Assembly (NCBI GenBank): GCA_033664045.1
Contig: GCA_033664045.1_3674.1
Length of the DNA stretch: 64,000 nt
Reading direction: 5' to 3' (one strand)
From: a phage
In this document: piece by piece, positions 4,388-34,963 of the stretch
Layout of the letters: each line of letters opens with the position of its first letter
How positions within the stretch are numbered: position 1 is the first letter of the stretch
Translations under genes and position numbers: made by a program
The notes under the pieces: generated by a model
The model's input: only the letters and a program-made list of their open reading frames with translations
The model's database searches: none
Told to the model about the DNA's origin: nothing

Positions 4388-5056
4388 ATGGCTGTAGCTT
4401 ATCCTACAATACCAATTCCAGATCTTGAAGATGCAGAAACAGTCCTGAGTGATGACTTCTTGGTTGTCAACCAGACTGATGGGACAAGAAAGGCTAAGAT
4501 TGACGATGTTGTCAACGATCTTAGCATTACTAAGATAGTCTATTTCACAGAGGGTGGTTATCTTAAGAGCAAGAAGGACTTTGCTTATGACCCAGAAACT
4601 AAGCGCTACTACACGTGGAACGGGGATTATCCTAAAATAATCCTCCCAGACTCCACTGTAGAGGGTGCTGGAGGTGTGTCTGCAAATGCCTGGTCTGTTT
4701 TTGGTGAGCTTGCTGCAACTTCTTCTGGTAGAATAGTTGATTACGGATCTATCGGTGGTCAGCTTGATATGGATCTTGAAGTTGCGGATACCTTTAAGGT
4801 TCGACTAACTTCAAATACCACAATCTCTTTTGAAAATCAAACAGAAGGTCTTGAAGGGGTGGCGAGAACTATAACCGTATGCATTACTCAGACCTCTGGC
4901 GGCAACAAAGTCTATTGGCCTGGTAATGTTAAATGGTCCTACGGAAGAGATCCTATCCTAACATTTACAGCTGGTGCAACAGACATTTTCAAGTTGGAAA
5001 CCTACGACAACGGGTTAACTTGGTACGGAGCACTGATTATCGCAGGAGCTATCTAA
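4388..5056 (+). CDS. tail fiber/baseplate-associated protein with conserved N-terminal anchor domain
   Basis: N-terminus (DDFLVVNQTDGTRKAKIDDVV...FTEGGYL...DFAY) is paralogous to the N-terminus of the 7691-11491 protein; RBS AAGGAGA. Confidence 0.5.
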   Translation: MAVAYPTIPIPDLEDAETVLSDDFLVVNQTDGTRKAKIDDVVNDLSITKIVYFTEGGYLKSKKDFAYDPETKRYYTWNGDYPKIILPDSTVEGAGGVSANAWSVFGELAATSSGRIVDYGSIGGQLDMDLEVADTFKVRLTSNTTISFENQTEGLEGVARTITVCITQTSGGNKVYWPGNVKWSYGRDPILTFTAGATDIFKLETYDNGLTWYGALIIAGAI

Positions 5057-5057
5057 G

Positions 5058-7655
5058 ATGCGTATTCAACACAACATTGATAACGTATTTCAGATGATTG
5101 AGGGGCACAGGAAGTGCCTCGATAACAACACAGGTATTACCAATACCCCTACACAAAATAAGCTAGTAAACCCTGATGGTCTTATAGCTGCAGGGTGGGC
5201 AGGTAATAAGATAAATAATGATTGGGCAATGCATGAGTCCCAAGCTGTGTTGATTCTGGGATACATTGAAGCATACAGGGCATCGAAAAGCGATTTCTAT
5301 CTGGATAGGGCAAAAGATGCTTGGGAAGCTTACAATAGTCATCTTCTGGGTGCATATGCAGTAGAAAGTAAAATGCAAAGATTGTCCCACTACCCACTAT
5401 CCACAGATGGGGTTCCATCACATGGTGGGTTTAAAGATGTAGTGGTGTCTTTTACCAACGGTAGAGGAAAAATCCCAGCTGGATCTCCGACATGGGGTGA
5501 ATACCTAGACAAGGCATTCCAAGCGTATAACGGTGTGCTAGGAAGAAACACTGTAGACTCTGATGTTTACGGCGGCACAGATGCTAACCCAAATTGGACA
5601 ACATCTGGATTAAGTTGGTGGGTTGAGTGGTATATAGCATGGGATGGTAACCGCTATTGGGCCAACGGTAGCATAGCAGACAGTGGTCATACGTCGGCAG
5701 AGTTCGGCACAATCCAACTGCAGGATAAGGGTGTTACAGGCAGCCATAAGGTAACCTACTGTGTGAGATTGCCACAAGAGCAGGGTGGTTCAGTGATACC
5801 TGCTGGATCCCCTGTAATTGTAAATCCTATAAATGTGGTTGCAGACAATCAAGCCCCAGAGTTGGGCGGGGAAGAAATGTGGTGTGACGCTTGTTATCAA
5901 CTCTACACCTTAACAGGTGAGGAAAAGTATTACACAGCGTTTAAGCAGTCTTACAACAAGCTGCTTAATTTCAGCGATATAAATGCCTACGACAAACTGT
6001 TTAGAAAGACCACGTTAATTAAGGCACCGTTCACAGATGGTACTTGTCTCGTCGCAGGAACAGTTCCTGTCATGAGCAGGGACAGTGACGGGTATATCAA
6101 TTTTAGAATGAACGCACGTCAGCCTTGCGAAATAATTCAAAAAGGGACTACATACAAGATAGGCAGAGATGCTGAAATTGTTATGAATTTCGGAGGAGAA
6201 GGGGTTCTGTTCCAGCCACACTTCATCCTTAATGATGGTAACAATAACAAAAAACAGTATAGGATAGGGGTCCCTTTTGGAGGGTCAGAGGTAACAGAGA
6301 CAGTTGCCAAGGTTACTGATTTCGTAGAGGTGGTTGGTAAAGACGGTAATCCGTATCTCTTGCCAAAAGAGGAAAACATTGCCGTAAGCGGTGGCGCTAG
6401 TGTTAGTATGCAGTATGATACCGACATTTATAACCACTCCGACAACTTCACCCGTTGCAACATAGCAAGAGGCAAGGTAACTTTCAATTTTGGAAGAGAG
6501 ATTTCTTTAAACTCAGTAACTTATCGCTCAGATGATGAGATGGTAAGGGCCAAATTCCTTGACAAAGACCGTTGGTTATGGTATGCTGATCTATATGCCA
6601 CTAACGGACAATGGGTAACAGAAACTCTTACCCTAGGTGATTTTAAACTAGACCCAACACAACCTCATCACACAGAAGATGAGATTAAACCTTTCTTTGC
6701 TAATCCTAAAGGAATTACCTCTGTAGATTTCAGTCTGAGCGACAGGCAGATAGGCAATGGCTTGTTCGATCTGTATTGCGTCAACACGCTGCCGCAATTT
6801 TATGTTGCAGATAGGGATGCTTATCTGATCTGGTTTAGTGTATGGATGGCAAGTAAGACAGAATCAACAGCCAAAGTTGGTGATTGCTATGTCAGAAACT
6901 ACAAGCAAGGTGCATACAGGTACACACCGGGTGTATTCCCTGCCGGAAAGGTGATAGATAAGGAAAACTATCTCTTAGAGGAAAAGCCAAATTGGCCCTA
7001 CCCTGGCATGCAATACCCAGCAGTCTACTGCATGGGTGCAGAAAACATAGATCGCCATAGGTTGTCAAATACAATAGGCTTTCTGTATGATGCTCAAGTC
7101 TGGTATAATAATACATTTAAGACAGAGGGTCCAGTTGCCTCACGTTATGTATGGCAGAGAGGTAATGAGGGGTTGACTGGTTGGTGGGAGATGGTAGATA
7201 ACTCTAAACTCCAATCAAGAGCCTTTGTTGCTGCGTGCCGCACACTGTACGAGCTTAAGAAACATAAAGAACCTGTTGACGAAAGACTGTTCCTGTTCTG
7301 CCAGAAATGGGCATGGTTCCTCAACAGATTCCAGTCATCTCATTCAGGAAATCTGCCTACAGACTTTAACACCTCTGGGGGATATTCTTATCAAGACAGA
7401 GGGGACAGGATGTGGGTGGTAGGTGAATGGCTTGCAGGTTGCTGCTGGCTAGGTCTGTGCGGGTATTCAGAGACAATACCTCAAATAGATATTGTTGTAG
7501 AAGCCTGCGTGAAGCTACTGCAAAAGCACCACTTCATCAATGGGGATAATGTTTTAAACGGCTGCTGGGCAGTTTCTGATCCGGTGGGCTATCACTCTGG
7601 CGAAATCCTTCGCGGTCTGGGCCTTTATGCTCAATACCGTGGATTGTACCTTTAA
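5058..7655 (+). CDS. large tail-associated protein (865 aa; possible receptor-binding or enzymatic spike)
   Basis: Own RBS GCAGGAG 9 nt upstream, starting 1 nt after the previous stop; Trp/Gly/Asn-rich; no anchor domain. Confidence 0.4.
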   Translation: MRIQHNIDNVFQMIEGHRKCLDNNTGITNTPTQNKLVNPDGLIAAGWAGNKINNDWAMHESQAVLILGYIEAYRASKSDFYLDRAKDAWEAYNSHLLGAYAVESKMQRLSHYPLSTDGVPSHGGFKDVVVSFTNGRGKIPAGSPTWGEYLDKAFQAYNGVLGRNTVDSDVYGGTDANPNWTTSGLSWWVEWYIAWDGNRYWANGSIADSGHTSAEFGTIQLQDKGVTGSHKVTYCVRLPQEQGGSVIPAGSPVIVNPINVVADNQAPELGGEEMWCDACYQLYTLTGEEKYYTAFKQSYNKLLNFSDINAYDKLFRKTTLIKAPFTDGTCLVAGTVPVMSRDSDGYINFRMNARQPCEIIQKGTTYKIGRDAEIVMNFGGEGVLFQPHFILNDGNNNKKQYRIGVPFGGSEVTETVAKVTDFVEVVGKDGNPYLLPKEENIAVSGGASVSMQYDTDIYNHSDNFTRCNIARGKVTFNFGREISLNSVTYRSDDEMVRAKFLDKDRWLWYADLYATNGQWVTETLTLGDFKLDPTQPHHTEDEIKPFFANPKGITSVDFSLSDRQIGNGLFDLYCVNTLPQFYVADRDAYLIWFSVWMASKTESTAKVGDCYVRNYKQGAYRYTPGVFPAGKVIDKENYLLEEKPNWPYPGMQYPAVYCMGAENIDRHRLSNTIGFLYDAQVWYNNTFKTEGPVASRYVWQRGNEGLTGWWEMVDNSKLQSRAFVAACRTLYELKKHKEPVDERLFLFCQKWAWFLNRFQSSHSGNLPTDFNTSGGYSYQDRGDRMWVVGEWLAGCCWLGLCGYSETIPQIDIVVEACVKLLQKHHFINGDNVLNGCWAVSDPVGYHSGEILRGLGLYAQYRGLYL

Positions 7656-7658
7656 CAT

Positions 7659-7679
7659 AGGGGGCTGTTTGCCCCCTTT
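7659..7679 (+). other. intergenic hairpin (weak terminator or RNA-stability element)
   Basis: gggggcTGTTTgccccc followed by only ttt, then the RBS. Confidence 0.3.
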
Positions 7680-7690
7680 CAGGAGAAAGA

Positions 7691-10600
7691 ATGGCTGATA
7701 TTAAAGTTGTCAGAATTGAATCTCTTCCTGCCACTACCGCAGTGACAGAGGATGATTACCTGGTTGTTCAACAACCAGACCTGACCCGTCGTGTAAAAAT
7801 TGGCGATGTTGTCCATGTGGATGGGACTGTTTCTCATGTAATCTCCTTTAAGGAAGGTGGTAAGTTAAACGGCCCAATGGATTTTGCCTACTTCGAAGAG
7901 GAAGACCTCTACCTGCGTTGGAAAGGCGAATTTCCACACACTGTTCCTGCACTGTCTTCACCATACTCCGATGGCGGGATTACTGACGCTGCATGGATGG
8001 TATATACAGATCCGTCCTTAAGGGAGGAGCTGGAATCTACCATTGGCGCATCTATGATCATGACAGCCGAAGGGCAGTCTGTCCAGGATGTGATGGATGT
8101 TACTGTTCAGACAGCTAACGATGCTAAAGCGCTTGCACAGCGTGTAGATTTTGGTACAGTGCACACTGTAGGTGATGTTATCCACCTCGATAACTTTGTT
8201 GGCCCTGCAGTTATTGAAGAGGGAAGAACCACCAACTATCCTTCTGTAGCAGCTGGTGAAAAATTTCTGAACGGTGTGGTATCTCGTCGTGATACTACAA
8301 CTGTTGATGGTATTTTCCGTGGCGCTACCTCCGGAGCAATGTATACCATCGCAGTAACCAACGGTGTAGCGACAACAAAAAGAATAGCACTTCGTGATGA
8401 ATTTAAACGCCTGGAGGCAAACAACCCAACAAGAACAGTTATCCGTGCTGGAGATGATTTAAACACGGCAGGGTACTTGCAGCTTGATGCAACAGGTCGT
8501 TGGGGTATGTGGAACCAACAAACAGCTTCTTGGCAACCTCTTGCTATAGAGCAAGGCGGTACAGGGGCCAGAGATGCCGCTGGAGTCCGTATCAATATCG
8601 GGGCTTTCTATAAGCAACGTGCAGCCCTTGAGCCAAATTTCAATATCAATAATTTGACTGGTAATCAGGATGGTGTATACTACCAGCCGATGACTGCTTA
8701 TGCAACTGAGGCAAATGGTTACCCTGCAGGTTCTGGTGCTGGTCACTTGATTGTTTGGCAGAACAATGCTAACGGCGGTACAGGTTGTCGTCAGGAATAC
8801 TATCCATTCTCTAACGTAGATGTTTGGTATTTGAGAACCTATCAGGCCAACACAAATCAGTGGACTGCATGGCAGCCGATGGTCAGACCTCGTAACGATG
8901 ATACCTTCAGATCTCATATTGGCCTTGGTAAAAACAACTCGCCAGCCTTCGGGCACCTTTACCTAGCTCAATACTCGGGAGATGTTAAATCGGCCTCAGG
9001 TATTCTCCATGGAGATAAATATAATACTGACGGTGTCCTTGAGCATGGATATAGGATCTATTCTGAGGTAAGAAACGACAATAAGGCTTGGTTGACAATC
9101 CACCTGCACAAAGGCGCAAAAGGATCTGAAACTCATAGATATTTAGGCTTCCGTGAGGATGGGGTCTTAGATTGTCCTAAATATATGCAGGTTGGTGATC
9201 TGAACGGTCAGCTGGCAAACTGGGGACTTGGAGAATGGATCCGCAGTTCAGGAGCAGAAAGAGGTTTCTGGGGATCTAAGAAAGCCGCCAAGATGGTTGT
9301 CTGGGATGGTGGGATGGACGAATCCGGTAACGGCACTCTGGAATGGGGTGTTTATAACAACCGGAAGGCCAAGTGGGAACCTTTACCTCAAGCCGCAGGT
9401 GGTACTGGGGCTACAACTTTAGCAGATGCTCAGAATCTGTTCAAAGTCCCTATAGCAGCAGGTGTGAAAGACTTCTTAACACTGCCAAGAACCGCAGGGA
9501 TGGAAGATGGGAAATACTACCCAATCATCGTTAGAACAGATCCGTATTACGCCCCTTCGACAGGTACAGATATTACCATAGTTACCAGATCGTCATCTGG
9601 AAATGACCCTATGAACTGTGCGACCTTACAGTGTCACTATAGAACTGGTGGTTGGACAGACAGAGGAGACTCTTTCTACGGGGTAGTAAATTTCTACCAG
9701 AATGAAAAAGCACTTCTTGGGATGGTTGCTCCAACAAGGGGTAAACAAGAATATGTTGCTTTCTATGTGGAGGCTCGTGCCTTCCCTGTCAGCATATACG
9801 CAAGTAGAAATGTTATCGAAGTGTTTACCAGAGAGCAAGATTACCAGGTTGGCTCTGTAACAGACAATCAGGATGGGGTTAAGTTCGTTGCACCTCTTCA
9901 GTCAGCAGATTTGAATCTTGCTGTTCTAGGAGATAACAACACCAATACCAGACCTATTGTTGACTTCAAAGGTACTTCAGGGTTCTACACTGGCGGCGGC
10001 ACACAGTGGCACTATATAGGCACTGCTGAACGCTATGCTGTGATGAGCAAAATGAATATGCCAAAAGTCGAGCTATGGGCAGACGGTCTTGACTATTTGT
10101 GCTACGGCAGTCCTAGAAAGGCGTTATTCTCTAATGCAGGATTCCAGTGTGCATCAGATGGGACAGAGGATCTGACTAACGGTACGTTTACCTCTAAATG
10201 CGGTAATGGTGCTGGTCTCAAAGGTCAGGCAGAGTTCAGATCTACTCCGGAAGCGGGTCAAGTTATTGTTCGCGATGTTGTAGGCACAGCTCATAGATTC
10301 TACAACTTCAACAAGGATGGTACTTTCTCAGCTCCTGGCGGTTTTGTATGTCATACTGGTGCAGACTGGAACAACCAGTTTGGGCCTAACAACCCTTCTA
10401 AAATAATGGCAGGCAATGTCAACGGACCTGAAGGATCGATGGTTGTTGGTGGGTTGTCTGTGGCGTTTTCTGGAAACTATGCCTTCCAAATGGCTGGTCG
10501 CCTTGATCAGTTATATACCAGATCTATCGAGGGTGGTAACCATAGGGCATGGAACAAGGTTATACAGCACAGAGGACAGGGTCTTGGGACAAACGACCTT

Positions 10601-11491
10601 AACGACTACAAAGGAGATAGGGAGGGTTTTTATCATCAGGAGGCCAATGCTCAAGCCGCACTTGATAAAAACTACCCATGCTCCCAGGCAGGTACTCTCG
10701 TTGTCTACAGAAACTATGCCAACGTTCCAGAGAGTTGCGTACAGGAATATACAACATATCTTGGAGAAAAATTCCTGCGTTATGGAACAACGATAGGTGG
10801 TGTTTTCACATGGGGCCATTGGCAGCAGCTTGGTGGTAAGGGTATCACTCTAAAAACTCAAGGATCCAATCTTGAACCGGAGTTCACAATACACACGGGT
10901 GGTGGGACGGATGTTACCAACACTTCCAACATGCCTTCTAATACAGGCAGGTTGTACTATTGGGGCAATGGCGCAGATAGGAAGAATGTGCTGGAGTTTC
11001 AGATAAGTGATAACTCAACAGTCGCCAGTTGGGTATTCCACTGTGGCGCTAAGACAGATGAGGCTAAATCAAGATATTTTGCTGTCAACGGTACGGTAGA
11101 ATGTACTACTGTTAGCCAAAGTTCCGATAGGGACCTGAAGGATAACATAGAGGTCATACCTAACGCTCTGGAAGCAATTAGAAAAATGAAAGGCTATACC
11201 TACACCTTGAAAGAGAATGGTATGCCTTATGCAGGCGTGATTGCTCAAGAGGTTATGGAAGCATTGCCAGAGGCAGTAGGATCTTTCGTGAAAAGGAAGG
11301 AAATAGAAGGTCCTACTCAAGACGGTATTCCTCTGATGACCGAGGAAAGGTTCTATAACGTTGACTACGCAGCTGTAACAGGCTTGCTTGTCCAGGTTTG
11401 CAGGGAACAGGACGATAAAATAACCGCCCTTGAGGAGCAGGTTAAAAAATTGACAGAGGTTGTTACTGGATTGCAAGAGAAACTGAAGTAA
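7691..11491 (+). CDS. tail fiber/tailspike protein with C-terminal peptidase S74 intramolecular-chaperone domain
   Basis: C-terminal about 130 aa (SDRDLKDNIEVIPNALEAIRKMKGYTYTLKENG...AGVIAQEV) matches the self-cleaving chaperone domain of endosialidase/T5 pb1-type fibers; N-terminus paralogous to the 4388 protein. Confidence 0.8.
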   Translation: MADIKVVRIESLPATTAVTEDDYLVVQQPDLTRRVKIGDVVHVDGTVSHVISFKEGGKLNGPMDFAYFEEEDLYLRWKGEFPHTVPALSSPYSDGGITDAAWMVYTDPSLREELESTIGASMIMTAEGQSVQDVMDVTVQTANDAKALAQRVDFGTVHTVGDVIHLDNFVGPAVIEEGRTTNYPSVAAGEKFLNGVVSRRDTTTVDGIFRGATSGAMYTIAVTNGVATTKRIALRDEFKRLEANNPTRTVIRAGDDLNTAGYLQLDATGRWGMWNQQTASWQPLAIEQGGTGARDAAGVRINIGAFYKQRAALEPNFNINNLTGNQDGVYYQPMTAYATEANGYPAGSGAGHLIVWQNNANGGTGCRQEYYPFSNVDVWYLRTYQANTNQWTAWQPMVRPRNDDTFRSHIGLGKNNSPAFGHLYLAQYSGDVKSASGILHGDKYNTDGVLEHGYRIYSEVRNDNKAWLTIHLHKGAKGSETHRYLGFREDGVLDCPKYMQVGDLNGQLANWGLGEWIRSSGAERGFWGSKKAAKMVVWDGGMDESGNGTLEWGVYNNRKAKWEPLPQAAGGTGATTLADAQNLFKVPIAAGVKDFLTLPRTAGMEDGKYYPIIVRTDPYYAPSTGTDITIVTRSSSGNDPMNCATLQCHYRTGGWTDRGDSFYGVVNFYQNEKALLGMVAPTRGKQEYVAFYVEARAFPVSIYASRNVIEVFTREQDYQVGSVTDNQDGVKFVAPLQSADLNLAVLGDNNTNTRPIVDFKGTSGFYTGGGTQWHYIGTAERYAVMSKMNMPKVELWADGLDYLCYGSPRKALFSNAGFQCASDGTEDLTNGTFTSKCGNGAGLKGQAEFRSTPEAGQVIVRDVVGTAHRFYNFNKDGTFSAPGGFVCHTGADWNNQFGPNNPSKIMAGNVNGPEGSMVVGGLSVAFSGNYAFQMAGRLDQLYTRSIEGGNHRAWNKVIQHRGQGLGTNDLNDYKGDREGFYHQEANAQAALDKNYPCSQAGTLVVYRNYANVPESCVQEYTTYLGEKFLRYGTTIGGVFTWGHWQQLGGKGITLKTQGSNLEPEFTIHTGGGTDVTNTSNMPSNTGRLYYWGNGADRKNVLEFQISDNSTVASWVFHCGAKTDEAKSRYFAVNGTVECTTVSQSSDRDLKDNIEVIPNALEAIRKMKGYTYTLKENGMPYAGVIAQEVMEALPEAVGSFVKRKEIEGPTQDGIPLMTEERFYNVDYAAVTGLLVQVCREQDDKITALEEQVKKLTEVVTGLQEKLK

Positions 11492-11498: not shown

Positions 11499-11523
11499 GC
11501 CCTCGCTTCGGCGGGGGCTTTTT
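11499..11523 (+). terminator. rho-independent terminator with TTCG tetraloop
   Basis: gccctcgcTTCGgcgggggc followed by ttttt, 8 nt after the fiber stop. Confidence 0.7.
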
Positions 11524-11590: not shown

Positions 11591-12181
11591 ATGTTTTTAT
11601 GGGAAAGGCCTAGATACCTTCCAGATATTAGATTGGAGCTGCTGGCAGATATTGTTACGTTTAAAAGTCCGTTTACAGGTAAAACGCAAAAAGTAACCTA
11701 TGCCACACCTAACTGGAAAGGCACTTTGACGGTTTCCAATATCAGCGAGTCACAGTTGCTAGAGCTTAAGAGCTTTGTTGATCAGGTGTATAGAGATGGA
11801 AACATCTTTCTTATTAAAACTTACGGTCACTCAGTTACAGCTAATGAGCCAATCGCCCTTGGGCCTACTGGTAACGACGATTTTTTGAAGACGGTTGGGT
11901 GGGAGCCAAACAGAGACATAGCCAGAGCTGGGGATAAAATATCTGTCAATGATGAATTGAAAGTGGTAACAGCTCCAGTGCGTAGCGATGGTGTTGGGTC
12001 TGCTGTTATAAGCATATCTCCAAGACTTAGAAAACCTATTGCCGCAGGGGACACTATGAAGATAATAACTCAATCCCCGAAGGGTAGGTTTCATATCAGA
12101 GATATTTATAAAATTAAGCAAAAAGTTGATGCTATGCAAAAAGGTGATAATATAGTTATCAACTTCTTTGAGGATTTCTAA
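11591..12181 (+). CDS. distal tail/tail-tip protein (lambda M-like position)
   Basis: First gene of a four-gene set ending in an NlpC/P60-like protein and a J-like giant protein; RBS AGGAGG. Confidence 0.35.
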   Translation: MFLWERPRYLPDIRLELLADIVTFKSPFTGKTQKVTYATPNWKGTLTVSNISESQLLELKSFVDQVYRDGNIFLIKTYGHSVTANEPIALGPTGNDDFLKTVGWEPNRDIARAGDKISVNDELKVVTAPVRSDGVGSAVISISPRLRKPIAAGDTMKIITQSPKGRFHIRDIYKIKQKVDAMQKGDNIVINFFEDF

Positions 12182-12182
12182 G

Positions 12183-12734
12183 ATGATCAGAGCGCCATTA
12201 GATAATTTATTTCTTGAAAAGCTGGAGCTTGATGGTGTTGAGATCTTAATTGCTGCAAAGCTGGAGCTACCGACAGGAACTGTCAGGGTGTGCTCAGGCA
12301 CTGGTGTTGTAGTAATTGAGGGGCAACATTTTATAGGGATAGGTGGATCAGCAACATTAACTGCTGTGTCTGAGAAAGATGCCACCAACTTCGGATCTGT
12401 GGTAGCGACATTGAACGGGTTTGATCCTAAGTATGTGGGTGATCTACTGAAGACGGAGTATTCTGGGTGTCGTGCCACGTTGTACATTACCGCTATGGAG
12501 AATGGTCTACCTGTTACAACCAATGGCTTGTTTGACGGCCTTATAACAGATATGGCTATTCAGACGGGTGAGAATAGTGCTTTGTCCATATCCATCTCTT
12601 CCATCTTCAACAGTTGGTTAAGAGGTTTTCCTTATCGGTACACAGAGGAAAGCCATAGCTCAAGAAACGATAATGACAGATTTTTTAAATATGTGGATCA
12701 GGTGGCGAGTCGCCCGATCATTTGGGAGGTTTAA
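12183..12734 (+). CDS. tail-tip protein (lambda L-like position)
   Basis: Track ORF 12168 trimmed to the ATG at 12183, which has GAGGAT upstream and lies 2 nt after the previous stop. Confidence 0.35.
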   Translation: MIRAPLDNLFLEKLELDGVEILIAAKLELPTGTVRVCSGTGVVVIEGQHFIGIGGSATLTAVSEKDATNFGSVVATLNGFDPKYVGDLLKTEYSGCRATLYITAMENGLPVTTNGLFDGLITDMAIQTGENSALSISISSIFNSWLRGFPYRYTEESHSSRNDNDRFFKYVDQVASRPIIWEV

Positions 12735-13159
12735 TGAGCACACACCCTCGTTTAGTGGATTGGCAAGAAAGATTGTGGAAAGTATTTGACGAAGAGGCCA
12801 CCATACCTTTTGAATGGGGATTCCACGATTGTTGCACCTTTGCAGCTAAGTGTGTTGATGCCCAATACGGAACAGATTTTCTTTCTAACTTCGAAGGAAC
12901 GTATAAAACAGAGTTGGAAAGCAAAAGATGGTGCATGCTTCGTTTCAAAACTACACACCTGCCTACTATTTTTGATCTCTTTTTGACTCGACTGGATACT
13001 CCTAAACAGGTTCAGCGTGGCGATATTGTTATTTTCGAAGGTCTGAACGGCCTCACCGCTGGTGTGTTCTGGAACAACCAGATTTGGGCGAAAGGTAATA
13101 AAGGGATCTTTACGTTCGATATGAAAGATTCTATCGTTGTTGATGTCTGGAGGTATTAA
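12734..13159 (+). CDS. NlpC/P60-like tail protein (lambda K / GTA g14-like)
   Basis: PFEWGFHDCCTF (Cys motif) and RGDIVIFEG...AGVFW (His-region pattern); ATG overlaps the upstream stop (TAATG). Confidence 0.5.
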   Translation: MSTHPRLVDWQERLWKVFDEEATIPFEWGFHDCCTFAAKCVDAQYGTDFLSNFEGTYKTELESKRWCMLRFKTTHLPTIFDLFLTRLDTPKQVQRGDIVIFEGLNGLTAGVFWNNQIWAKGNKGIFTFDMKDSIVVDVWRY

Positions 13160-16100
13160 TGCCAATTGCAATGATTGATAACATCGTTGCTTCTGCAAGA
13201 TCTTCAAGTTATGACTGGAACGCATCCAAGGCAGCTCTGGCTGACAGCCTGAACACTGTTACCACCAGAACTCTGGATAAGATTTTTGAGGGCAACAAAT
13301 CTTACAGAAGTCAGCAAGATAGACAAAAGCTTCTCAGATCTTCTGCTGCACCTTGCTCTGTAGTGTATGGGAAGACACGCACATCCGGATTGCTTGCGTT
13401 TTTGGAGCAGGATAGAGACAGAACTCTCCACTGTGCTATTGTTCTTGCCAATCACCCTCTGGAAGGTATAGAAGATATACTTATCGACGGTAACCCTATT
13501 TCCTCGTATGGGGATTTGGTATCGTGGGAGCTACATAACGACAGAAAAACATCTGATCCTTTCATGGGGACACACTGCCCATCGTGGTCACCAGACATGA
13601 TAGGTAGAGGGATCAGTTGGCTACGTGCCAGTTTCAAGTTTGACCCTAACAAGTTTCCTTTTGGGTTGCCAAACGTTACACTCGTCAAGGTTGGTAAAAA
13701 ATGCTATGATCCTCGCATCAGTAAAGAGGTGTATACCAATAACGCTGCCTTGGTGATCTTAGACTATTTAAGAACGTACCTTAAATGTCCTGACGAAACC
13801 ATCAACTGGGAGTCCTTCAAGGAGGCTGCCAACATATGCGACGAGGCGGTAAAAAACGCTGACGGAACCAGTGAGCGACGTTACACCATTAACGGTGAGT
13901 TTGACATGGATGAGGTCCCCGCAAGTATTATGGCAGAAATGCTGAAAGCTTGCGGTGCAGACCTTAGTTATGTTGCTGGTAAGTATGGTTTGCTGGTTGG
14001 TGCATACTATGGTCCGGCAACAATGACATTGAGTGAGGACTGTGTCTGTGGTGAGGTTAAGATCTATCCGGAAGCCTCGTTTGACAAAAGATCCAACACA
14101 ATAACTGGCAGATTCACTAGTCCGACCAAAGGGTATTCTGAAACAGATTTTCCATCAGTGTTTGTCCCAGAGTGGATAGAGAAGGATGGAGAAAGAAAGA
14201 TAATCGATATAGACTACCGCTTTGTTACCAGTCCTTATCAAGCTCAACGTGTTTCTGCAATCTTCCTAAGACGTGCCAGAGCTGGCAGGATTATTGAAGT
14301 CACCTGCAATATGCGAGGTTTTAAATTTAAACCTGGTCGTTACGTTACAATGGACCTCCCAAGTATTGGTATAGTGGGCCAAGAAATGAGGGTTCTTGAA
14401 TGGGAGTTCACCAAAAAGGGCGGTGTCAAGGTAAAACTTCGTCAAGATGCTAAAGAGTGGAATGATGCCACAGGGCAACTTCCGGATTCTGGCGATGTAG
14501 ATATTCCGATATCTCCATCTGGTGTAGCTCAACCGCAAAACTTCAGATATTCCGTTCTCCAAGCTGGAGAAGTAACTCACGGTGTTTTGGCTTGGGACAA
14601 CGTTGGGACTTACGCTCAAAATATTGTGCAGGTAAGAAAGAACGGAGAGATTGTTTGGACAGCACAGACAGTTGAGCAGTTTGTCCGTGTTGAAGGCTTG
14701 ACCAAAGGGTCATACACAGCAACCGTGGTTGCAACATCCTATAAAGGTGGTGTATCTCCAGAAGCGTACTGTGAGTTTAACATTCAGGCACCTGAAGCTC
14801 CGGTTTCTGTAGAGGTTAAGCAAGGATACTTTGCTATCACCTTGATTCCGCATAGTAGGGATTTAGCAAGTGTTAGCACCCAGTATGACTTTTGGACATC
14901 TGGTATGACAAGGTTGCCAGACACCAGTGATGCAACCGTTACTTCAAACGCCACCCGTATGGGTGTTGGTTCAACTTGGACATCTGAAGGACTGCAGAAC
15001 GATAAGGTTTATTATTGGTATATTCGAACCACAAACGCTTTTGGTAGCTCTCAGTTTGTAGAATGCGCTGCACGCTGCTACACCTCTATAGAGGATTTGA
15101 TGCCTCAGATAGATGCCGAATTCAAAAAGACAGAAACTTATAAAGAGTTGATGAGCACTTTGGATTCCTCTATTGAAGAGGTTGAAAATCGTGTCACAGA
15201 ACTTAACAGGTACATGGAGGGTAGGGTAGATGAAGCGTTCCAGCAGCTTGGTGACAGAATAGGTGCGGTAGTTACAGAAACAACTCAGAAGTTTGAAGAT
15301 GTCAATGGTAACATTACAGCGCTGGATAGGAAACTTGTTGCTGCACAGAACAAATTCACCAACGACCTGAACACTGAAAGTGGCAGACTGGCATCTCTAA
15401 TCGAGACAACCAATAAAGCAACCACTGATCTTCTGAACAAAAAGACAGAGGCTTTAGATGAGAAATTGGTTGCCGCCAAAGGTGAGCTGGTAGAGCAGAT
15501 AGAGGGAGTTGAGAGCGGGTATTTAGCCGGAGATAAAACTCTGGATGGTAAGATCAATACTCAGAGAACAGAACTTGACGCAAGTATCTTGAGCACTAAC
15601 CAATCCACTGTAGATCTTTTGAACAGGACATCTGAAACTCTGGATCAAAAGATTAGTCAGACAAACGCGACGGTATCTAAAAACTATACCACCCTTGACG
15701 GCAAGATAACTACCGCAAAAACTGACCTCAACACCTTGATTGCCAATACCAACAAGGCCACCACTGACTTGCTGAATCAGAAAACATCTGCACTGTCAGA
15801 GCAGATAACTTCTGCACGTGGGGAGATTTCTACCAATAAGCAAGCGATTGATGCTTTGGATGGAAAACTGACCTCCACAAAAACAGCGCTGGATGCTACA
15901 ATTTCCGATACCAACAAAGCCACTGTGGACCTTATCAACGGCACAGCGTCAGCTATTCGTCAAGAACTTGCTGTTGCTAAGCAGGAGATCATGGATGATG
16001 TTGGGGATGTGTCTGAGATCAGGGCTGCAGTAGCTACAACATCTAAGGCTGTGACCGACTTAGAGGGTAAAGTAAATGCTCAATGGGGCACAAAAATACA

Positions 16101-16998
16101 GGTAGACTCCGCAGGGAATAAATATGTTGCAGGTATTCAGTTGGGGATGGAAGGGTCTGGAGGCCAAGTTCAATCCTACTTCATGGTTAGTGCAAACAAT
16201 TTTGCGGTATACAACCCTGGCAATGGAACAGCAACCCTTGCTTTCGCAATCAAGAACAACCAAGCATTCTTGAAAGACGCTTTTATAGAGAATGGCACGA
16301 TCTCCTCTGCCAAGATCGCACAAGAAATCTCGTCAAACAACTACGATGGCAACGGGTACCATAAATACGGTTGGTATATTAACAAGAACGGGCACGCCCA
16401 ATTTATGGATGTGTGGGTGAAAGGCAACATCAACGCTAGTTCTGGTAACTTCACAGGGGCAGTTAACGCCACAAGTGGTACCTTCCGTGGGGATGTTTAT
16501 GCCAATAATGGTAGCTTTAGGGGCACCATAGATGCAACCGGAGGTACCTTCCGTGGTCGTGTGGAAGCTTCTGTTATCCGCGCTAACCAGTTCGAAGGTG
16601 CAATTGTTGCACACAGAACTTACGGGGATTGTGCTCCAGTATATAACTCCCAGCAAAGGGTTTGCCGTTGGAGGTGGAGATACGTAGATAACGTTTCAGG
16701 TCAGGGTAAGAACGTAACATTCTTCTTTAAACTGAATGGTACTCTTGCCAGCTCCCAACTGAATGCATGGATAGCTGGTCATCAGATCCTTGCTGGCAAG
16801 AAGTATTTTAACGACAACAACGGTATGTGTGCGGTAGGGATAACAGGTCTGGGTGAACAAACTATAGATATTGTTATCGAGATCTACACACCATGGTCAA
16901 CGTCTTCTGTAACAGGGGTCGCAATATCCTGTCCTACTGTTGTGGTAAGCCGTTCTAACTCAAGCTTCCAGGGACCTTGGAACGAGTCTCACGACTAA
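13159..16998 (+). CDS. giant central tail fiber/host-specificity (J-like) protein with FN3-like region and coiled-coil repeats
   Basis: 1279 aa; central region resembles the lambda J / Phage-tail_3 pattern from memory; FN3-like segment; repeated TNKATTDLLN motifs; Gly-rich C-terminal beta region. Confidence 0.5.
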   Translation: MPIAMIDNIVASARSSSYDWNASKAALADSLNTVTTRTLDKIFEGNKSYRSQQDRQKLLRSSAAPCSVVYGKTRTSGLLAFLEQDRDRTLHCAIVLANHPLEGIEDILIDGNPISSYGDLVSWELHNDRKTSDPFMGTHCPSWSPDMIGRGISWLRASFKFDPNKFPFGLPNVTLVKVGKKCYDPRISKEVYTNNAALVILDYLRTYLKCPDETINWESFKEAANICDEAVKNADGTSERRYTINGEFDMDEVPASIMAEMLKACGADLSYVAGKYGLLVGAYYGPATMTLSEDCVCGEVKIYPEASFDKRSNTITGRFTSPTKGYSETDFPSVFVPEWIEKDGERKIIDIDYRFVTSPYQAQRVSAIFLRRARAGRIIEVTCNMRGFKFKPGRYVTMDLPSIGIVGQEMRVLEWEFTKKGGVKVKLRQDAKEWNDATGQLPDSGDVDIPISPSGVAQPQNFRYSVLQAGEVTHGVLAWDNVGTYAQNIVQVRKNGEIVWTAQTVEQFVRVEGLTKGSYTATVVATSYKGGVSPEAYCEFNIQAPEAPVSVEVKQGYFAITLIPHSRDLASVSTQYDFWTSGMTRLPDTSDATVTSNATRMGVGSTWTSEGLQNDKVYYWYIRTTNAFGSSQFVECAARCYTSIEDLMPQIDAEFKKTETYKELMSTLDSSIEEVENRVTELNRYMEGRVDEAFQQLGDRIGAVVTETTQKFEDVNGNITALDRKLVAAQNKFTNDLNTESGRLASLIETTNKATTDLLNKKTEALDEKLVAAKGELVEQIEGVESGYLAGDKTLDGKINTQRTELDASILSTNQSTVDLLNRTSETLDQKISQTNATVSKNYTTLDGKITTAKTDLNTLIANTNKATTDLLNQKTSALSEQITSARGEISTNKQAIDALDGKLTSTKTALDATISDTNKATVDLINGTASAIRQELAVAKQEIMDDVGDVSEIRAAVATTSKAVTDLEGKVNAQWGTKIQVDSAGNKYVAGIQLGMEGSGGQVQSYFMVSANNFAVYNPGNGTATLAFAIKNNQAFLKDAFIENGTISSAKIAQEISSNNYDGNGYHKYGWYINKNGHAQFMDVWVKGNINASSGNFTGAVNATSGTFRGDVYANNGSFRGTIDATGGTFRGRVEASVIRANQFEGAIVAHRTYGDCAPVYNSQQRVCRWRWRYVDNVSGQGKNVTFFFKLNGTLASSQLNAWIAGHQILAGKKYFNDNNGMCAVGITGLGEQTIDIVIEIYTPWSTSSVTGVAISCPTVVVSRSNSSFQGPWNESHD
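15400..15990 (+). repeat. degenerate intragenic tandem repeats (about 150-190 nt period) encoding coiled-coil heptads
   Basis: Four copies of acCAAtAAaGCaACcACTGAtcTtcTGAAc-like units at about 15409, 15596, 15748 and 15910. Confidence 0.6.
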
Positions 16999-18605: not shown

Positions 18606-19292
18606 ATGGCAGAGATTAAGTCGGATGTTAACCACATCCACACTCTGCCAGATTTTGTTCAGGGAGGTCTTGACTACCTGCCTGGAGATTTTCTGGCTGA
18701 GAAGGTTAATTTAGTCACATTCTTAACCGTATACCTTAAAAGGTTGGAGGATGTTGATAAGATGCTGGTAGGTTTGGCTGAAGGAAGATTGCTTAACAAT
18801 GCCAGCGGAAGATACCTTGACGAAGTTGGTAATCAACTTGGTATTCTTAGGAATGGACTTTCAGATGCTGATTTTCGTGCCACACTAATTATTCAGCAGG
18901 CCGCAGCATCAAGGGGCGGGACTCGCGAAGATGTCATCTCCACCTTGCGACAATTGTTCGGAAGAGACAATTTCGATACGTGGAAAGGAGACAACTTCAG
19001 GTTTGACATAAATATTAGAAAAACTTGCTTTGACATATTGCAGTCTATCGATCAGATCTTAGATATGCTGCCATTGCCTTGTCATTTGCGTCTTACAGAA
19101 TCGCAAGGGCAAGCTTTTGGTTTTGAAGGGGACTCTACAGCTCTTGGCTTCGGATCAGTGTGGGAAGAAAACCAATTCGGAGTTGGTGGGCTGGCTACTT
19201 TGCTATATGTTCCTGACGTAAGACCTGATTGGGACACCACAACCATTTATTGTGAAAGTATTACAGTAAACGCAACTAGACAGGAGGGTTAA
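18606..19292 (+). CDS. baseplate wedge protein (P2 gpI / DUF2313-like)
   Basis: Directly follows the J-like gene; pattern LP...A.GRYLDE.G...G..R...SDADFR. Confidence 0.4.
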   Translation: MAEIKSDVNHIHTLPDFVQGGLDYLPGDFLAEKVNLVTFLTVYLKRLEDVDKMLVGLAEGRLLNNASGRYLDEVGNQLGILRNGLSDADFRATLIIQQAAASRGGTREDVISTLRQLFGRDNFDTWKGDNFRFDINIRKTCFDILQSIDQILDMLPLPCHLRLTESQGQAFGFEGDSTALGFGSVWEENQFGVGGLATLLYVPDVRPDWDTTTIYCESITVNATRQEG

Positions 19293-21364
19293 TGGCAACA
19301 GCTGTTTTTAAACCTTACCGTGATTACTCTACAATGGCTGCACAGTTTCATTACCGAACAGTTCAGGATACTGCCGTTCCTGGTAGGGATTATAATCATG
19401 TTGAGGGCGATGTAACTATCCCAATTGGGGCAACCAGTATTGAAATCCCAGTGGAAATTGTTGACAAATTACCCAACAGGTTACCAAGAAGCTTCTTTAT
19501 GGAGTTTTCATCAAAATCTCAAGGGGTGATGATTGGGACACAAAGGGCAAAATGCACAATAGTTTCAGATGAGAATCTTGACAGGATATCTTGGGATACT
19601 GTTGAGGAGAGAATGTTTCACCCAAGATATTGGGTTACAACCACCCAGCAGACTGAAAGTACCTGTATTGTTGCAGATGACAACTGTTGTATTAACCGTT
19701 TAGTGTCAAGAACATATGGAGGTATGGCTGGGTGCATTTGGGAAACAGTTGACAAGTATGACCATTTCGGTATTGGGTTTGATGATCACTATGAGATGAG
19801 AAACACCAAGCTTTGGTTCAGAATGTCAATAACCAATGCCAGCAACTTCTCCACTCCTGAAAAGATGATTATGACTGTAGACCTTGTTGATGGCACAATC
19901 ATCTATGTTCCTTTAGCTCAATATGCTGTCAGCATCTCAGAGGATAAGAATGTTGCAGAGATTCATATTGATTTCGAGGACTGCGTCGGGATGGATCAGA
20001 ACAACAACATGATGGGTGTTGATCCTCGACAGGTGAGAAGGATTTTAATACCGCTTATGCCTAAAGATTGGGTAAGTAATAGCACAGACCCGAGAACGGA
20101 AAATGTAGAGTGCGAGTTGCGCTTAGACCTGCTTCAGCCAGACACAGGTTGGAAAATGATGCAACTTAACAATATTCAGGTTAAAGAGCACGACGTTGGG
20201 ATCTGCACCGCATATGACGATATGTGGAACGTATCTCCTTTAAGGGTGTTGAACAATATCAAGCGTCTGGGCTATACCGGAACCATAAACCATTATGTTG
20301 GTATGAGTCATTATTATGACTACACATGGTCAGGAACCCAATGGTCTATAAACAGAACAGGGGCGCTAAACGCTGCAGCTTATAAATGGCATGATGATTT
20401 TATGTACAATGCCAAACGACATAACTTCGACGTTATGCAGTCTGTAAGTTTTGAGCTTTACAGCGATGCCTGTCCGTTGGAATGGACCCAAAGAGACTGG
20501 AACGATAACTACGCTAAAACAGGGTATACACCTTGTAGCTACCTCCTGTCTCCAACCATTGAAGAGGGTATGAATTTCCTTACGGCAGTATTTAAGAATT
20601 TTGCATCAGCCGCTATGAGAAACAACCTGCCAGTGATTATGCAGATTGGTGAACCGTGGTGGTGGTTCAATACCGATACTCGTAAGCCTTGTATTTATGA
20701 TTACCCTACAAAACAGGCGTTTTATGATGAGACAGGCGAGTATGCATTAGATATTGGGACTATTGACGATCCTAAAACTGGCGGTGTTTACGACAAGTAT
20801 GTAGCATTTTGTCGTGGTAAGCTTGGCGCTCGTATTGCGGCTATTTCAAAGGCAATAAAAGCACACGCTGCATCAGCTCAGATGACAGCTTTGCTGTTTT
20901 TCCCAACCATTATGGAAACCGAGCTTACGCAAAAGCTGAACCTTGCTGACCAATATAAAAAGGAAGCAGGTGCTCTTGATTTCTTCTGCACTGAGTGCTA
21001 CGATTGGGTGATGCAGGGAGGTATTGAAAAGGCAAAAGAGTCTGTAAACATACCTATCGTTAAGTTAGGTTGGCAACCGTCTGAAATACAATACCTTGCA
21101 GGGTTCGTTCCTAGTAAAGAGCTTGCTCCGGTATATGGCTACGACCCAACCAGGAATTACCAAGAATTTTTATGGAGATGTATCTGCGGGAACATGGCAA
21201 CCATAGAGTATAGATACCCTGAGGTAAAACAGTATGTGTGGGCATACCCGCAAGTAATGTCTGACAGCATCACTGTTACCGCTAGGGATTCTACCGTGCT
21301 TCATATGGGGCAGGTTGCTCTGAAAGGGTATGTAGAAGATGTTGTCCCGCCAGACTTCTCATAA
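19292..21364 (+). CDS. tail fiber/baseplate-associated protein (690 aa)
   Basis: TAATG-coupled to the gpI-like gene; Trp-rich, no firm motif. Confidence 0.35.
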   Translation: MATAVFKPYRDYSTMAAQFHYRTVQDTAVPGRDYNHVEGDVTIPIGATSIEIPVEIVDKLPNRLPRSFFMEFSSKSQGVMIGTQRAKCTIVSDENLDRISWDTVEERMFHPRYWVTTTQQTESTCIVADDNCCINRLVSRTYGGMAGCIWETVDKYDHFGIGFDDHYEMRNTKLWFRMSITNASNFSTPEKMIMTVDLVDGTIIYVPLAQYAVSISEDKNVAEIHIDFEDCVGMDQNNNMMGVDPRQVRRILIPLMPKDWVSNSTDPRTENVECELRLDLLQPDTGWKMMQLNNIQVKEHDVGICTAYDDMWNVSPLRVLNNIKRLGYTGTINHYVGMSHYYDYTWSGTQWSINRTGALNAAAYKWHDDFMYNAKRHNFDVMQSVSFELYSDACPLEWTQRDWNDNYAKTGYTPCSYLLSPTIEEGMNFLTAVFKNFASAAMRNNLPVIMQIGEPWWWFNTDTRKPCIYDYPTKQAFYDETGEYALDIGTIDDPKTGGVYDKYVAFCRGKLGARIAAISKAIKAHAASAQMTALLFFPTIMETELTQKLNLADQYKKEAGALDFFCTECYDWVMQGGIEKAKESVNIPIVKLGWQPSEIQYLAGFVPSKELAPVYGYDPTRNYQEFLWRCICGNMATIEYRYPEVKQYVWAYPQVMSDSITVTARDSTVLHMGQVALKGYVEDVVPPDFS

Positions 21365-21376: not shown

Positions 21377-22417
21377 ATGTCAAAACCTAGTTTTCCATTA
21401 GAGATTTGGGCAGAGGAGGATCAGGTTCTGCCTAACACCCACAGACAGAACAGGCTACGCCCGATTGATGATTTGTGGAGAAAAGGTTGGGATCTTGGTC
21501 AAAAGCCATCCTGTGAAGAACTTAACTATATTTTCAATATGCTCGGGACTTGGGCAAAATACATTGCTGACGAGCAGATCCCCGCTCAAGAAGGCCGCTA
21601 TCTGGTACGTGATAATAACTTGAGTGATCTTTTGAACATCCCTGTTGCCCGTAGAAACCTTGGAATTATTACTAAGGAAGAGGCAGACGCCAGGTATGTA
21701 AAAGTTACAGGTGATACAATGACAGGCCCATTGGGTTTGCAACGTATCAACTTTAAAGCTGCCGAGACAGATAAGGCTTGGATAGAGACAACTATTGGCC
21801 CAGATAAGACAACTCTCGACTTTGGGTTAAGTGATAATATTGGGGCGTTTGATGATGGTGGCACCTCTACAGTAGATGCGTTCCGTTGGAGATTTCAGCC
21901 AACTCAGCCGGACATTAACCCAGAGTTCACTTTGATGTATCTGAACGCAATCACGGCTAATCGTGCGTTGTTGAAAGTGGTGGGCAATGTTGAAGTTGTT
22001 GATAACATGCGATGTAATAACCTCACCATTAGCAGCACAGCAACATTCACCAACTGCAATGTAGCTAGTCAGTTGACGGCTGGGTCAGTATATGTCAATG
22101 GCGGTGCAAGTTGTGACAGTATGGTTGTAAGAAGCCAGCATTGTGTTGTCGGTAACAGAAATGTGGTGCGCTCTGTGAATGGAGTGACGGCTAACGGCAA
22201 CGGAGATGTAACGATCACCATCCCGCAGACAGGTGTACAGGATATCAGAATCGGCGCAAGACTTGTTGATGGTGTTTCTGAATCTCCAGTTCGCAACGGC
22301 TACGTTGTCACAGGTTGGCATTTTGGTGATAAAAAAGAGATGCGTGGTTCAACCTACTGGGCAGGGCCTTTACAGAAACTTGTAAATGGTCAATGGATCA
22401 CTGTTAATTATGCGTAG
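21377..22417 (+). CDS. tail fiber protein, paralog A
   Basis: N-terminus (KPSFPLEIWAEED) and C-terminus (LVNGQWITVNYA) are paralogous to the 23432-24475 protein. Confidence 0.55.
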   Translation: MSKPSFPLEIWAEEDQVLPNTHRQNRLRPIDDLWRKGWDLGQKPSCEELNYIFNMLGTWAKYIADEQIPAQEGRYLVRDNNLSDLLNIPVARRNLGIITKEEADARYVKVTGDTMTGPLGLQRINFKAAETDKAWIETTIGPDKTTLDFGLSDNIGAFDDGGTSTVDAFRWRFQPTQPDINPEFTLMYLNAITANRALLKVVGNVEVVDNMRCNNLTISSTATFTNCNVASQLTAGSVYVNGGASCDSMVVRSQHCVVGNRNVVRSVNGVTANGNGDVTITIPQTGVQDIRIGARLVDGVSESPVRNGYVVTGWHFGDKKEMRGSTYWAGPLQKLVNGQWITVNYA

Positions 22418-22431
22418 ATCGGAGGACTAGT

Positions 22432-23016: not shown

Positions 23017-23027
23017 GAGGAGGTGTT

Positions 23028-23342: not shown

Positions 23343-23352
23343 ACAAAGGTCA

Positions 23353-23382
23353 GAACGGAAAGGACTCCGTTCTTGCATTTTG
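23353..23382 (+). terminator. hairpin terminator overlapping the next promoter
   Basis: gaacggAAAGGACTccgttc followed by a T-rich run. Confidence 0.5.
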
Positions 23383-23401
23383 TTCTCTAAAGTGTTAAAA
23401 T
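23373..23401 (+). promoter_or_regulatory. promoter TTGCAT-N17-TAAAAT with extended -10 TG
   Basis: Hexamers at 23373-23378 and 23396-23401, about 30 nt upstream of the 23432 ATG. Confidence 0.45.
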
Positions 23402-34961: not shown

Positions 34962-34963
34962 GA

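Follow-up and report, generated by a model that had tools for sequence, protein, structure and literature searches.

A putative two-part N-terminal attachment module shared by two virion proteins in an rV5-like phage

The locus and the shared N-terminal region

The window, i.e., the whole stretch of 64,000 nt analyzed here, belongs to an rV5-like Vequintavirus, an E. coli phage (96-97% nucleotide identity). Phages of this type infect a wide range of hosts and serve against E. coli O157 and in phage collections. The genes considered here (Table 1) are named after their rV5 orthologues: gp43 (222 aa), gp42 (865 aa) and gp41, the long tail fibre. The ORFs of gp43 and the fibre were found as described in the initial annotation. 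The hairpin ahead of the fibre gene was missed by the terminator scan because its T-run is short. The assignment of genes to fibres is still described as unclear in this group of phages (PMC8594841). Virions of rV5 contain gp41, gp42 and gp43, and the detection of gp41 and gp43 by mass spectrometry (PMC3606486) agrees with the earlier proposal, which required both to be virion components.

Table 1 Features of the locus, with positions in the window
Feature	Position	Strand	Basis
222-aa protein, orthologue of rV5 gp43, probable adaptor	4388..5056	+	ORF, AGGAG 7 nt upstream
N-terminal peptide of gp43, aa 1-45, ..IPIPDLEDAETVLSDDFLVVNQTDGTRKAKIDDVV..	4388..4522	+	Homologous to fibre aa 1-45, z = 11.5
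PF18668 Tail_spike_N of gp43, aa ~46-105	4523..4702	+	Pfam E 2.1e-10
C-terminal beta-sandwich domain of gp43 (conserved), aa ~115-222, putative docking site of the 865-aa protein	4730..5053	+	tblastn
865-aa protein, orthologue of rV5 gp42 and phi92 gp141, putative cassette cargo	5058..7655	+	phrog_2871
GC-rich hairpin GGGGGC-tgttt-GCCCCC then TTT, between cassette and fibre gene	7660..7676	+	Read in sequence
1266-aa long tail fibre, orthologue of rV5 gp41	7691..11491	+	ORF, AGGAG RBS, phrog_6578
N-terminal peptide of fibre, aa 1-45, ..VVRIESLPATTAVTEDDYLVVQQPDLTRRVKIGDVV..	7691..7825	+	BLASTP, n45 profile, Smith-Waterman
PF18668 Tail_spike_N of fibre, aa ~46-105	7826..8005	+	Pfam E 2.2e-10
Peptidase_S74 intramolecular chaperone domain, fibre C-terminus	11123..11278	+	Pfam PF13884, E 7.5e-15
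Intrinsic-terminator-like hairpin after fibre gene	11499..11518	+	8-bp stem, 7 GC pairs, then TTTTT

The two proteins had been proposed to share a homologous N-terminus and to differ completely beyond it, and both parts of this proposal hold. BLASTP aligned aa 8-105 of gp43 with aa 7-105 of the fibre at 38% identity and 55% positives (E = 3e-18), and the motifs DD(F/Y)LVV.Q.D.TR..KI.DVV, (T/K)EGG.L, DFAY and W.G(D/E).P all lie within the alignment. The Smith-Waterman score was 175 against 27.7 +/- 4.9 in 2000 shuffles (z ~30), with residues 1-46 and 46-108 by themselves giving z = 11.5 and z = 17.6, respectively. Beyond the module, the same comparison gave z = 1.6, i.e., the remainders are unrelated. 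When each N-terminus was compared by phmmer with the 683 six-frame ORFs of the window, it matched just the other one (E 6e-17 and 3.5e-18), and no third bearer of the module was found among these ORFs (next match, E > 0.1). At the DNA level, the common stretches of the two modules are limited to patches of 18-30 nt.

Two parts with separate distributions

The shared region had been taken as a single domain. Instead, it is made up of an N-terminal peptide (N-peptide, aa ~1-45) and a PF18668 domain, each of which is found alone in proteins of phi92: gp140 and the endosialidase gp143 carry the N-peptide without PF18668, and gp151 carries PF18668 without the N-peptide. PF18668 (TSP1/Gp66 N-terminal domain) has a gathering cut-off of 25 bits and was recognized at 41.0 bits in gp43 (aa 51-105) and at 40.9 bits in the fibre (aa 46-103), N-terminally placed in both. 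Sequence matches of the gp43 region in the PDB were Sf11 gp13, CBA120 TSP1/3/4 and G7C gp63.1. In the AF2 model of the fibre, aa 50-105 reached a pLDDT of 78-90, and the top 12 PDB matches of this domain by Foldseek were B2 Gp48, CBA120 TSP1/TSP3/TSP4 and G7C gp63.1, all with a probability of 1.00 (E 7e-7 to 5e-5); on this predicted structure, the fold of the N-terminal TD of CBA120 TSP1 is confirmed for the fibre domain. The N-module of gp43 had a pLDDT of <50 in the AF2 monomer, and for the N-peptide the AF2 monomers gave roughly 50-60 or lower. PF18668 occurs in >1300 phage records with very different tail types; the fold is widespread and, in many trimeric tailspikes, separates the anchor from the working part.

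The N-peptide was not assigned to any family by the Pfam scan. Its consensus is ΦKΦxDLPxAxxΦxxxDxΦΦΦxQxDxT(R/K)K, and the N-peptide profile (n45) has three sequences; gp43 matches this profile, which was partly built from its own N-peptide. The only PDB chain matched by the profile at E <= 10 was a de novo TIM barrel, and a suspected resemblance to the N-terminal repeats of T4 gp12 was dropped for this reason. Word-indexed homologue searches gave few proteins, so the distribution was taken from tblastn against a phage collection and from an exhaustive profile search. The latter, over 1.84 billion proteins, recovered 247 cluster representatives, and the 150 of them that were listed range in length from 38 to 3549 aa. 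Nine of the ten long proteins scanned also carry PF18668, accompanied by S74, Collar, beta-helix or pectate-lyase domains or by no recognized partner, and the tenth has S74 alone. In the Klebsiella phage P8734, it begins three consecutive receptor-binding proteins, and one N-peptide protein of this phage has an insert of ~50 aa ahead of PF18668.

The diversity of tails with PF18668, and the fact that in Sf11 this region lies outside the resolved interface, would fit a region that both proteins received from an ancestral tailspike and that serves just for trimerisation or as a neck, with the attachment located elsewhere. However, the N-peptide match starts no more than a few residues into the protein for most of the 150 representatives listed, phi92 gp140 and gp143 have kept the peptide without PF18668, the peptide is near-invariant (at least 99% protein identity in >100 records) against a variable remaining fibre, and the 222-aa protein has no other candidate attachment region. 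We consider it very improbable that the region is not an anchor.

An anchoring role for the module can also be set beside its pattern of variation. By tblastn, aa 1-140 of the fibre were at least 99% identical in 112 phage records, and the first 110-140 residues of both gp41 and gp43 reach at least 99% in >100 related phages. Compared with WalterGehring, the fibre module of the window has 99-100% nucleotide identity and the distal fibre is variable, with patches at 8813-9113 and 10238-10538 and a tip replaced after ~10764. The module is the most conserved portion of the fibre within the genus. The modular exchange suggested at first stands between genera, where the module is kept on unrelated downstream parts. 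The rV5 protein, gp41, is a long fibre equipped with an S74 chaperone, PVP-SE1 and 4MG gp49 are colanidases, and the similarity between them stops at residue ~134. Within Vequintavirus, however, the breakpoints are not at the module boundary, as had been anticipated, but ~375-1025 residues into the fibre.

The 222-aa protein and its 865-aa neighbour

The protein gp43 is 98-100% identical across >100 rV5-like phages. The start of gp42 is located 1 nt past the gp43 stop, with its RBS inside gp43, and at all eight loci examined the start and stop of the two genes overlap or are 1-2 nt apart; translation of gp42 would be coupled to that of gp43. By tblastn, the C-terminal domain of gp43 was found in 526 phage records, always as the C-terminal part of a small protein encoded immediately 5' of an 865-aa-protein homologue (~520 genomes), in myo-, podo- and jumbo phages alike. 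The N-terminal 162 aa of gp42 were found in 519 records, at coordinates adjoining the gp43 C-domain and with near-identical taxon counts. Homologues of gp42 were compared in seven other phages (phi92, PVP-SE1, 121Q, UPF_BP2, phiEa21-4, Kaonashi and Vibrio D531), and in six of them conservation starts at residue 2-3. A PDB sequence search gave no match for the 865-aa protein.

The C-domain is conserved in eight phage groups. What precedes it in the small protein depends on the lineage: the N-terminus consists of the N-peptide plus PF18668 in rV5 and PVP-SE1, of the N-peptide only in phi92, of a helical segment in UPF_BP2 and of the T7 gp17 tail-attachment domain (PF03906) in the podovirus Kaonashi, phiR8-01 and P0005-P0011, with other types elsewhere. 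AF2 modeled the C-domain of gp43 with a pLDDT of 60-85, and its closest fold was the Pa223 capsid spike (E 1.9e-3). The label "sialidase domain" given to gp43 in BASEL records was rejected: the C-domain has no Pfam match, and the sialidases retrieved by Foldseek span 25 columns at E > 6.

The constant position of the C-domain 5' of the 865-aa homologue, combined with an N-terminus that changes with the lineage, suggests an adaptor. Two features of this class were found in the small protein, namely a lineage-specific N-terminus, which would bind the virion, in front of a conserved domain, which would face the cargo, and an obligate pairing of its gene with the cargo gene, side by side. The 222-aa protein had been presented as a second receptor-binding protein; judging from these sequence patterns, its most likely role is that of an adaptor carrying the 865-aa protein, and it probably does not bind a receptor itself. 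Its N-terminal module would fix it to the virion, and its C-domain would hold the separately encoded, glycosidase-like 865-aa protein; that gp43 binds gp42 we infer from gene co-occurrence and the logic of conservation. In the podoviruses SP6, K1-5 and K1E, gp37 is a small virion adaptor with its N-terminus on the tail and its other end holding a separately encoded enzyme. The likeness of gp43 to gp37 is one of functional class, set by description and not by sequence, and the cargo differs, being one conserved protein of ~900 aa instead of exchangeable tailspikes. Relative to the known sharing of modules, the newer detail is probably this adaptor role.

Two broader readings may be taken jointly. 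The first makes gp43 the adaptor of a mobile cassette, with a ~900-aa enzyme, that is present in ~520 phages and retargeted by swapping the N-terminus. The second makes the N-peptide a distinct, uncatalogued docking unit of ~35 residues that marks the extreme N-terminus in at least 247 protein clusters, with two to three tandem copies in some of them, and that plugs into a baseplate socket in Vequintavirinae, phi92-like phages and some prophages. Together, they seem to us a serious possibility, to be held tentatively and at rather less than even odds.

Possible mounting on the virion

Our overall explanation, to which we give a probability of roughly 0.55, is that gp41 and gp43 of this rV5-like myovirus, both of them virion proteins, each carry a two-part N-terminal attachment module. 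The N-peptide would act as a lineage-specific plug inserting into the baseplate periphery. The 1266-aa protein is the long fibre, with distal parts that differ among isolates, and downstream parts would have been exchanged over evolutionary time. Putting these parts together, paralogous copies of one anchor would carry two distinct devices for host recognition. The baseplate-wedge density of Bas49/Bas54 has been fitted with large Vequintavirinae fibres that have S74 at the C-terminus (RBPseg class TC12; PMC12143355), and the fibre described here probably belongs to this group. The phi92 and Bas49/Bas54 maps leave these proteins unresolved.

The arrangement has precedents. G7C gp63.1/gp66 and Sf11 gp13/DTP likewise have a PF18668-type domain near the N-terminus, mounted via a more N-terminal, lineage-specific element, and in Sf11 the contact is made by the extreme N-terminus of the tailspike, with the PF18668 part following. 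However, this element has ~100 residues in G7C gp63.1, where the partner is the gp10-like domain of gp66, and is a helical bundle in Sf11 gp13, where the partner is the DTP helix. The TSP1-TSP4 of CBA120 (Ackermannviridae) also combine a homologous N-terminal domain with unrelated C-terminal parts in one myovirus (PMC3966878), and their TD domains belong to PF18668 and have the same fold (ECOD "Orf210 N-terminal domain"). They differ in having two tandem TDs that dock on the T4 gp10-like XD domains of TSP2 and TSP4, whereas the rV5-like pair has one TD behind a distinct peptide of ~45 aa. In Ackermannviridae, the PF18668-type TD1 is itself the docking element, and therefore the PF18668 part could be the contact in gp41 and gp43 too.

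The tailspike-tailspike docking mediated by such TD domains in Ackermannviridae, and the attachment of fibre II to the base of fibre I in the cryo-EM of phi92, would also agree with a branched complex in which gp41 or gp43 docks on the other, e.g., gp43-gp42 at the base of gp41, in the manner of the CBA120 and G7C tailspikes. We regard this as unlikely: no gp10-like (XD) docking domain was found by Pfam and PHROGs in the tail ORFs at 3662-32756, a search that remote homologues could escape, and gp41 and gp43 carry like N-modules, with a complementary socket recognizable in neither.

A single socket, i.e., both modules competing for one identical baseplate site with mixed or alternative occupancy, was the first option raised in the initial annotation and is in our opinion improbable, even with modules homologous over their entire length and both proteins present in virions. 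The modules are just 34-38% identical and evidently derive, as far as their sequences tell, from an old duplication that predates the split of Vequintavirus and Seunavirus. In Seunavirus, conservation among the orthologues of each paralogue is 81-89%, and the identity matrix gave no sign of the concerted evolution that we had considered as a mark of a shared socket. In addition, P8734 has its three N-peptide proteins, and the reconstruction of phi92 has three fibre types with six trimers each. In the two-part attachment reading, the modules of gp41 and gp43 would rather use separate, related sockets.

The same organization appears in other genera. PVP-SE1 gp51/gp49, 4MG 049/047 and phi92 gp140/gp143 are encoded at a locus between sheath-initiator and wedge genes, as here, and comprise two proteins bearing the N-peptide. 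The second protein is a colanidase in PVP-SE1 and 4MG, and not a long S74 fibre, while in phi92 it is an endosialidase and both proteins are devoid of PF18668. Rosemountvirus gp38, also considered, is an unrelated protein of 123 aa.

It is textbook knowledge that variable receptor-binding proteins are built on conserved N-terminal anchors, and the shared module is an ordinary, already catalogued example of modular design in phage receptor-binding proteins. The general principle being established, the gp41/gp43 locus is a further example and not a new idea; the parts possibly worth more work are the adaptor plus enzyme cassette and the N-peptide. Knowing the mounting residues of rV5-like fibres would allow receptor-binding parts to be swapped with assembly intact. 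The likeness itself had been recorded before: in the 2011 GenBank annotation of PVP-SE1, a note gives gp49 as resembling rV5 gp043 in its N-terminus.

Shared N-terminal module of the 222-aa protein and the fiber

Over 100 Escherichia phages of the genus Vequintavirus, among them rV5, HMD-6, and the BASEL isolates, have 96 to 97% nucleotide identity to this tail locus (positions 4388-8100). The tail, baseplate, and fiber cluster is located on the plus strand, from 24 to about 32182, and synteny with rV5 and PVP-SE1 identified the 222-, 865-, and 1,266-aa ORFs as gp43, gp42, and gp41, respectively. GC skew and AT skew switch sign at about 32000 to 40000, consistent with a minus-strand gene block beyond the tail cluster. 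Some 18 to 23 GenBank records (MG0656xx) labeled "Campylobacter phage" (host C. jejuni) are 96 to 100% identical here to the E. coli rV5-like phages, and their host labels look doubtful.

Residues 8 to 105 of the 222-aa protein and 7 to 105 of the fiber have 38% identity (BLASTP, E = 3e-18), with a local alignment score ca. 30 standard deviations over shuffled sequences, and a search of the window's six-frame ORFs (683 in all) with either N-terminus retrieved only the other. The remainders of the two proteins are unrelated to each other (z = 1.6 relative to shuffles). The initial annotation, which had proposed homologous N-termini on two otherwise completely different proteins, was exactly right on both points. 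It would have been refuted if the two proteins were not both virion components; gp41 and gp43, together with gp42, were detected in rV5 virions by mass spectrometry (Kropinski et al., PMC3606486). The fiber probably belongs with the large Vequintavirinae fibers with a C-terminal S74 (RBPseg class TC12), which have been fitted into the low-resolution baseplate-wedge density of two Vequintavirinae phages (PMC12143355).

The Pfam domain PF18668 (Tail_spike_N) scores above its curated cutoff in both proteins, but only at residues about 46 to 105. Sequence searches of the PDB matched this part to chains of Sf11 gp13, phage B2 Gp48, CBA120 TSP1, TSP3, and TSP4, and G7C gp63.1, always after 60 to 120 N-terminal residues of the chain's own. 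An AF2 model of fiber residues 1 to 170 was confident at residues 50 to 105, and its best 12 PDB matches by Foldseek, all with a probability of 1.00, were these same tailspikes.

Judging from its distribution, the region before PF18668 (the first ca. 45 residues, or N-peptide) is a second, separable element. It occurs without PF18668 in phi92 gp140 and the phi92 endosialidase gp143, while phi92 gp151 has PF18668 at its start and no such peptide; three consecutive fiber/spike genes of Klebsiella phage P8734 all begin with the N-peptide. A 48-position profile searched against 1.84 billion proteins recovered 247 cluster representatives. The match begins within the first few residues for most of the 150 hits listed (proteins of 38 to 3,549 aa). 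PF18668 accompanied it in nine of the 10 long hits scanned; other recognized domains in these nine were S74, Collar, and beta-helix or pectate-lyase, and four had no further domain. The metagenomic proteins P0085, P0087, P0115, and P0121 start with the motif repeated two or three times in tandem, which shows that the N-peptide is self-contained and behaves as a repeat unit of ca. 35 residues. It had no family in a Pfam scan, and its profile matched no PDB chain.

The whole module might mount two devices at the baseplate periphery, the long fiber and a small adaptor with its enzyme, the N-peptide acting as a specific plug and the PF18668 part as a generic neck. Sf11, in which the extreme N-terminus of the tailspike, ahead of the PF18668 part, makes the contact, provides an analogy for this arrangement. 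However, docking in the Ackermannviridae is done by a TD domain itself. In the tail ORFs of the window (3662 to 32756), neither Pfam nor PHROGs detected a gp10-like docking domain, although remote homologues could escape such scans. The two modules may share one socket, have sockets of their own, or dock onto each other.

A 2014 description of CBA120 (PMC3966878) showed N-terminal structural domains common to several of its receptor-binding proteins, which are unrelated in all other parts. Such shared domains are now treated as the commonest modularity of these proteins, with the Orf210 (PF18668) domain named among the most reused anchors (bioRxiv 10.64898/2026.05.12.724579). The GenBank record of PVP-SE1 already notes that gp49 resembles rV5 gp043 at the N-terminus. 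The shared anchor is real but, given these precedents, known in kind and, in effect, in this lineage. Three points are possibly new: the N-peptide is separable, it has no solved structure, and a proposed adaptor and an enzyme make up a cassette.

A proposed adaptor-cargo gene pair

The C-terminal domain of the 222-aa protein (ca. 108 residues) is present in 526 phage records and the N-terminus of the 865-aa protein (162 residues) in 519; the two sets have nearly the same taxon counts, and their coordinates are adjacent. In all eight lineages examined (rV5-like, PVP-SE1, phi92, Rosemountvirus UPF_BP2, phiEa21-4, the T7-like podovirus Kaonashi, Vibrio phage D531, and jumbo phage 121Q), this domain ends a small protein encoded directly next to, or overlapping with, the gene for a homologue of the 865-aa protein. 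Alignment of the large protein with that of the window begins within the first 20 residues for six of the other seven phages and only at residue 47 for D531. In contrast, the N-terminus of the small protein differs between lineages; PF03906, the tail attachment domain of T7 gp17, occupies this end in Kaonashi and in seven homologues from metagenomes or other phages. The simplest reading of this co-occurrence is that the 222-aa protein would be an adaptor, its N-terminus binding the virion and its C-terminus holding the 865-aa protein as cargo. The two hairpins of the table suggest that this pair and the fiber are separate expression units.

The C-terminal domain was modeled with moderate confidence as a beta-sandwich; its best fold match, a weak one, was the Pa223 capsid spike, in agreement with a remark on phi92 gp140 (PMC13450770). 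The name "sialidase domain protein" carried by the 222-aa protein in BASEL records (here 4730..5053) found no support: neither Pfam nor Foldseek indicated a sialidase fold.

Features of the tail cluster, with positions in the window
Feature	Position	Strand	Remarks
222-aa protein (gp43)	4388..5056	+	
RBS of the 865-aa gene	inside the 222-aa gene	+	start codon one base past the 222-aa stop
865-aa protein (gp42)	5058..7655	+	
GC-rich hairpin, short T-run	7660..7676	+	between the 865-aa gene and the fiber gene
1,266-aa fiber (gp41)	7691..11491	+	
Strong terminator-like hairpin	11499..11518		3' of the fiber gene
Tail-tip set	11591..16998		196-aa "distal tail protein" (phrog_1302); 188-aa tail protein; 145-aa DUF6950 protein; 1,279-aa J-like protein (Pfam Phage_Tail_Tip, Ig_J)
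690-aa protein	19292..21364		Pfam NCTSP_N, TIM-barrel_NCTSP (non-contractile tail sheath protein), Calx-beta
Two paralogous short tail fibers (346 and 347 aa)	21377..24475		both phrog_4465; either side of a Caudo_TAP tail-fiber assembly protein and a 104-aa ORF
581-aa ORF	24761..26506		

Variation behind the anchor

Domain exchange behind the anchor, as suggested initially, is apparent between genera, where the module is kept and the bodies are unrelated. PVP-SE1, 4MG, and EspYZU15 carry a colanidase in the position of the fiber, and its likeness to the rV5-type fiber stops at residue ca. 134; phi92-like phages have an endosialidase or another spike in the corresponding slot, or leave it empty (PMC10269720). 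Within related phages, variation was instead found at 8813-9113, 10238-10538, and the distal end of the fiber gene. Several sampled records lose megablast similarity ca. 2,960 to 2,990 nt into the gene, and a more sensitive blastn alignment with HMD-6 stops near 10764. Both modules are conserved at ≥99% protein identity in more than 100 related phages (tblastn), and the gp43 gene and the fiber module are 99 to 100% identical in nucleotides to those of WalterGehring.

rV5 gp43 has 48 to 51% identity to Seunavirus gp51 and 39 to 41% to gp49, while the gp41 module has 34 to 38% to all three. By these values the two paralogues are old, and nothing in the comparison, which covered rV5 and Seunavirus, points to concerted evolution. 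In DNA sequence the copies are too dissimilar for homologous exchange inside one genome.

Neighboring tail genes

In this myovirus the fiber and wedge genes are separated by a set of lambda-like tail-tip genes, which phi92, PVP-SE1, and 4MG do not have at this position. A J-type central fiber would have to work alongside the hub and spike that the contractile tail already possesses. At its N-terminal end phrog_15437 is matched by the PF18668 stretch of the 222-aa protein and at its C-terminal end by the last 177 residues of the 581-aa ORF, so a phi92 gp151-type protein (L009, 19320..21281) apparently joins a start of the PF18668 kind to the tip found in the 581-aa ORF. The N-terminus of the 581-aa ORF differs from the gp151 type and, by eye, resembles the start of phi92 gp150. 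Such a combination would be another shuffled module. The 690-aa protein is the orthologue of a fiber linked by BASEL to recognition of the enterobacterial common antigen and to N4 gp64 (PMC8594841).
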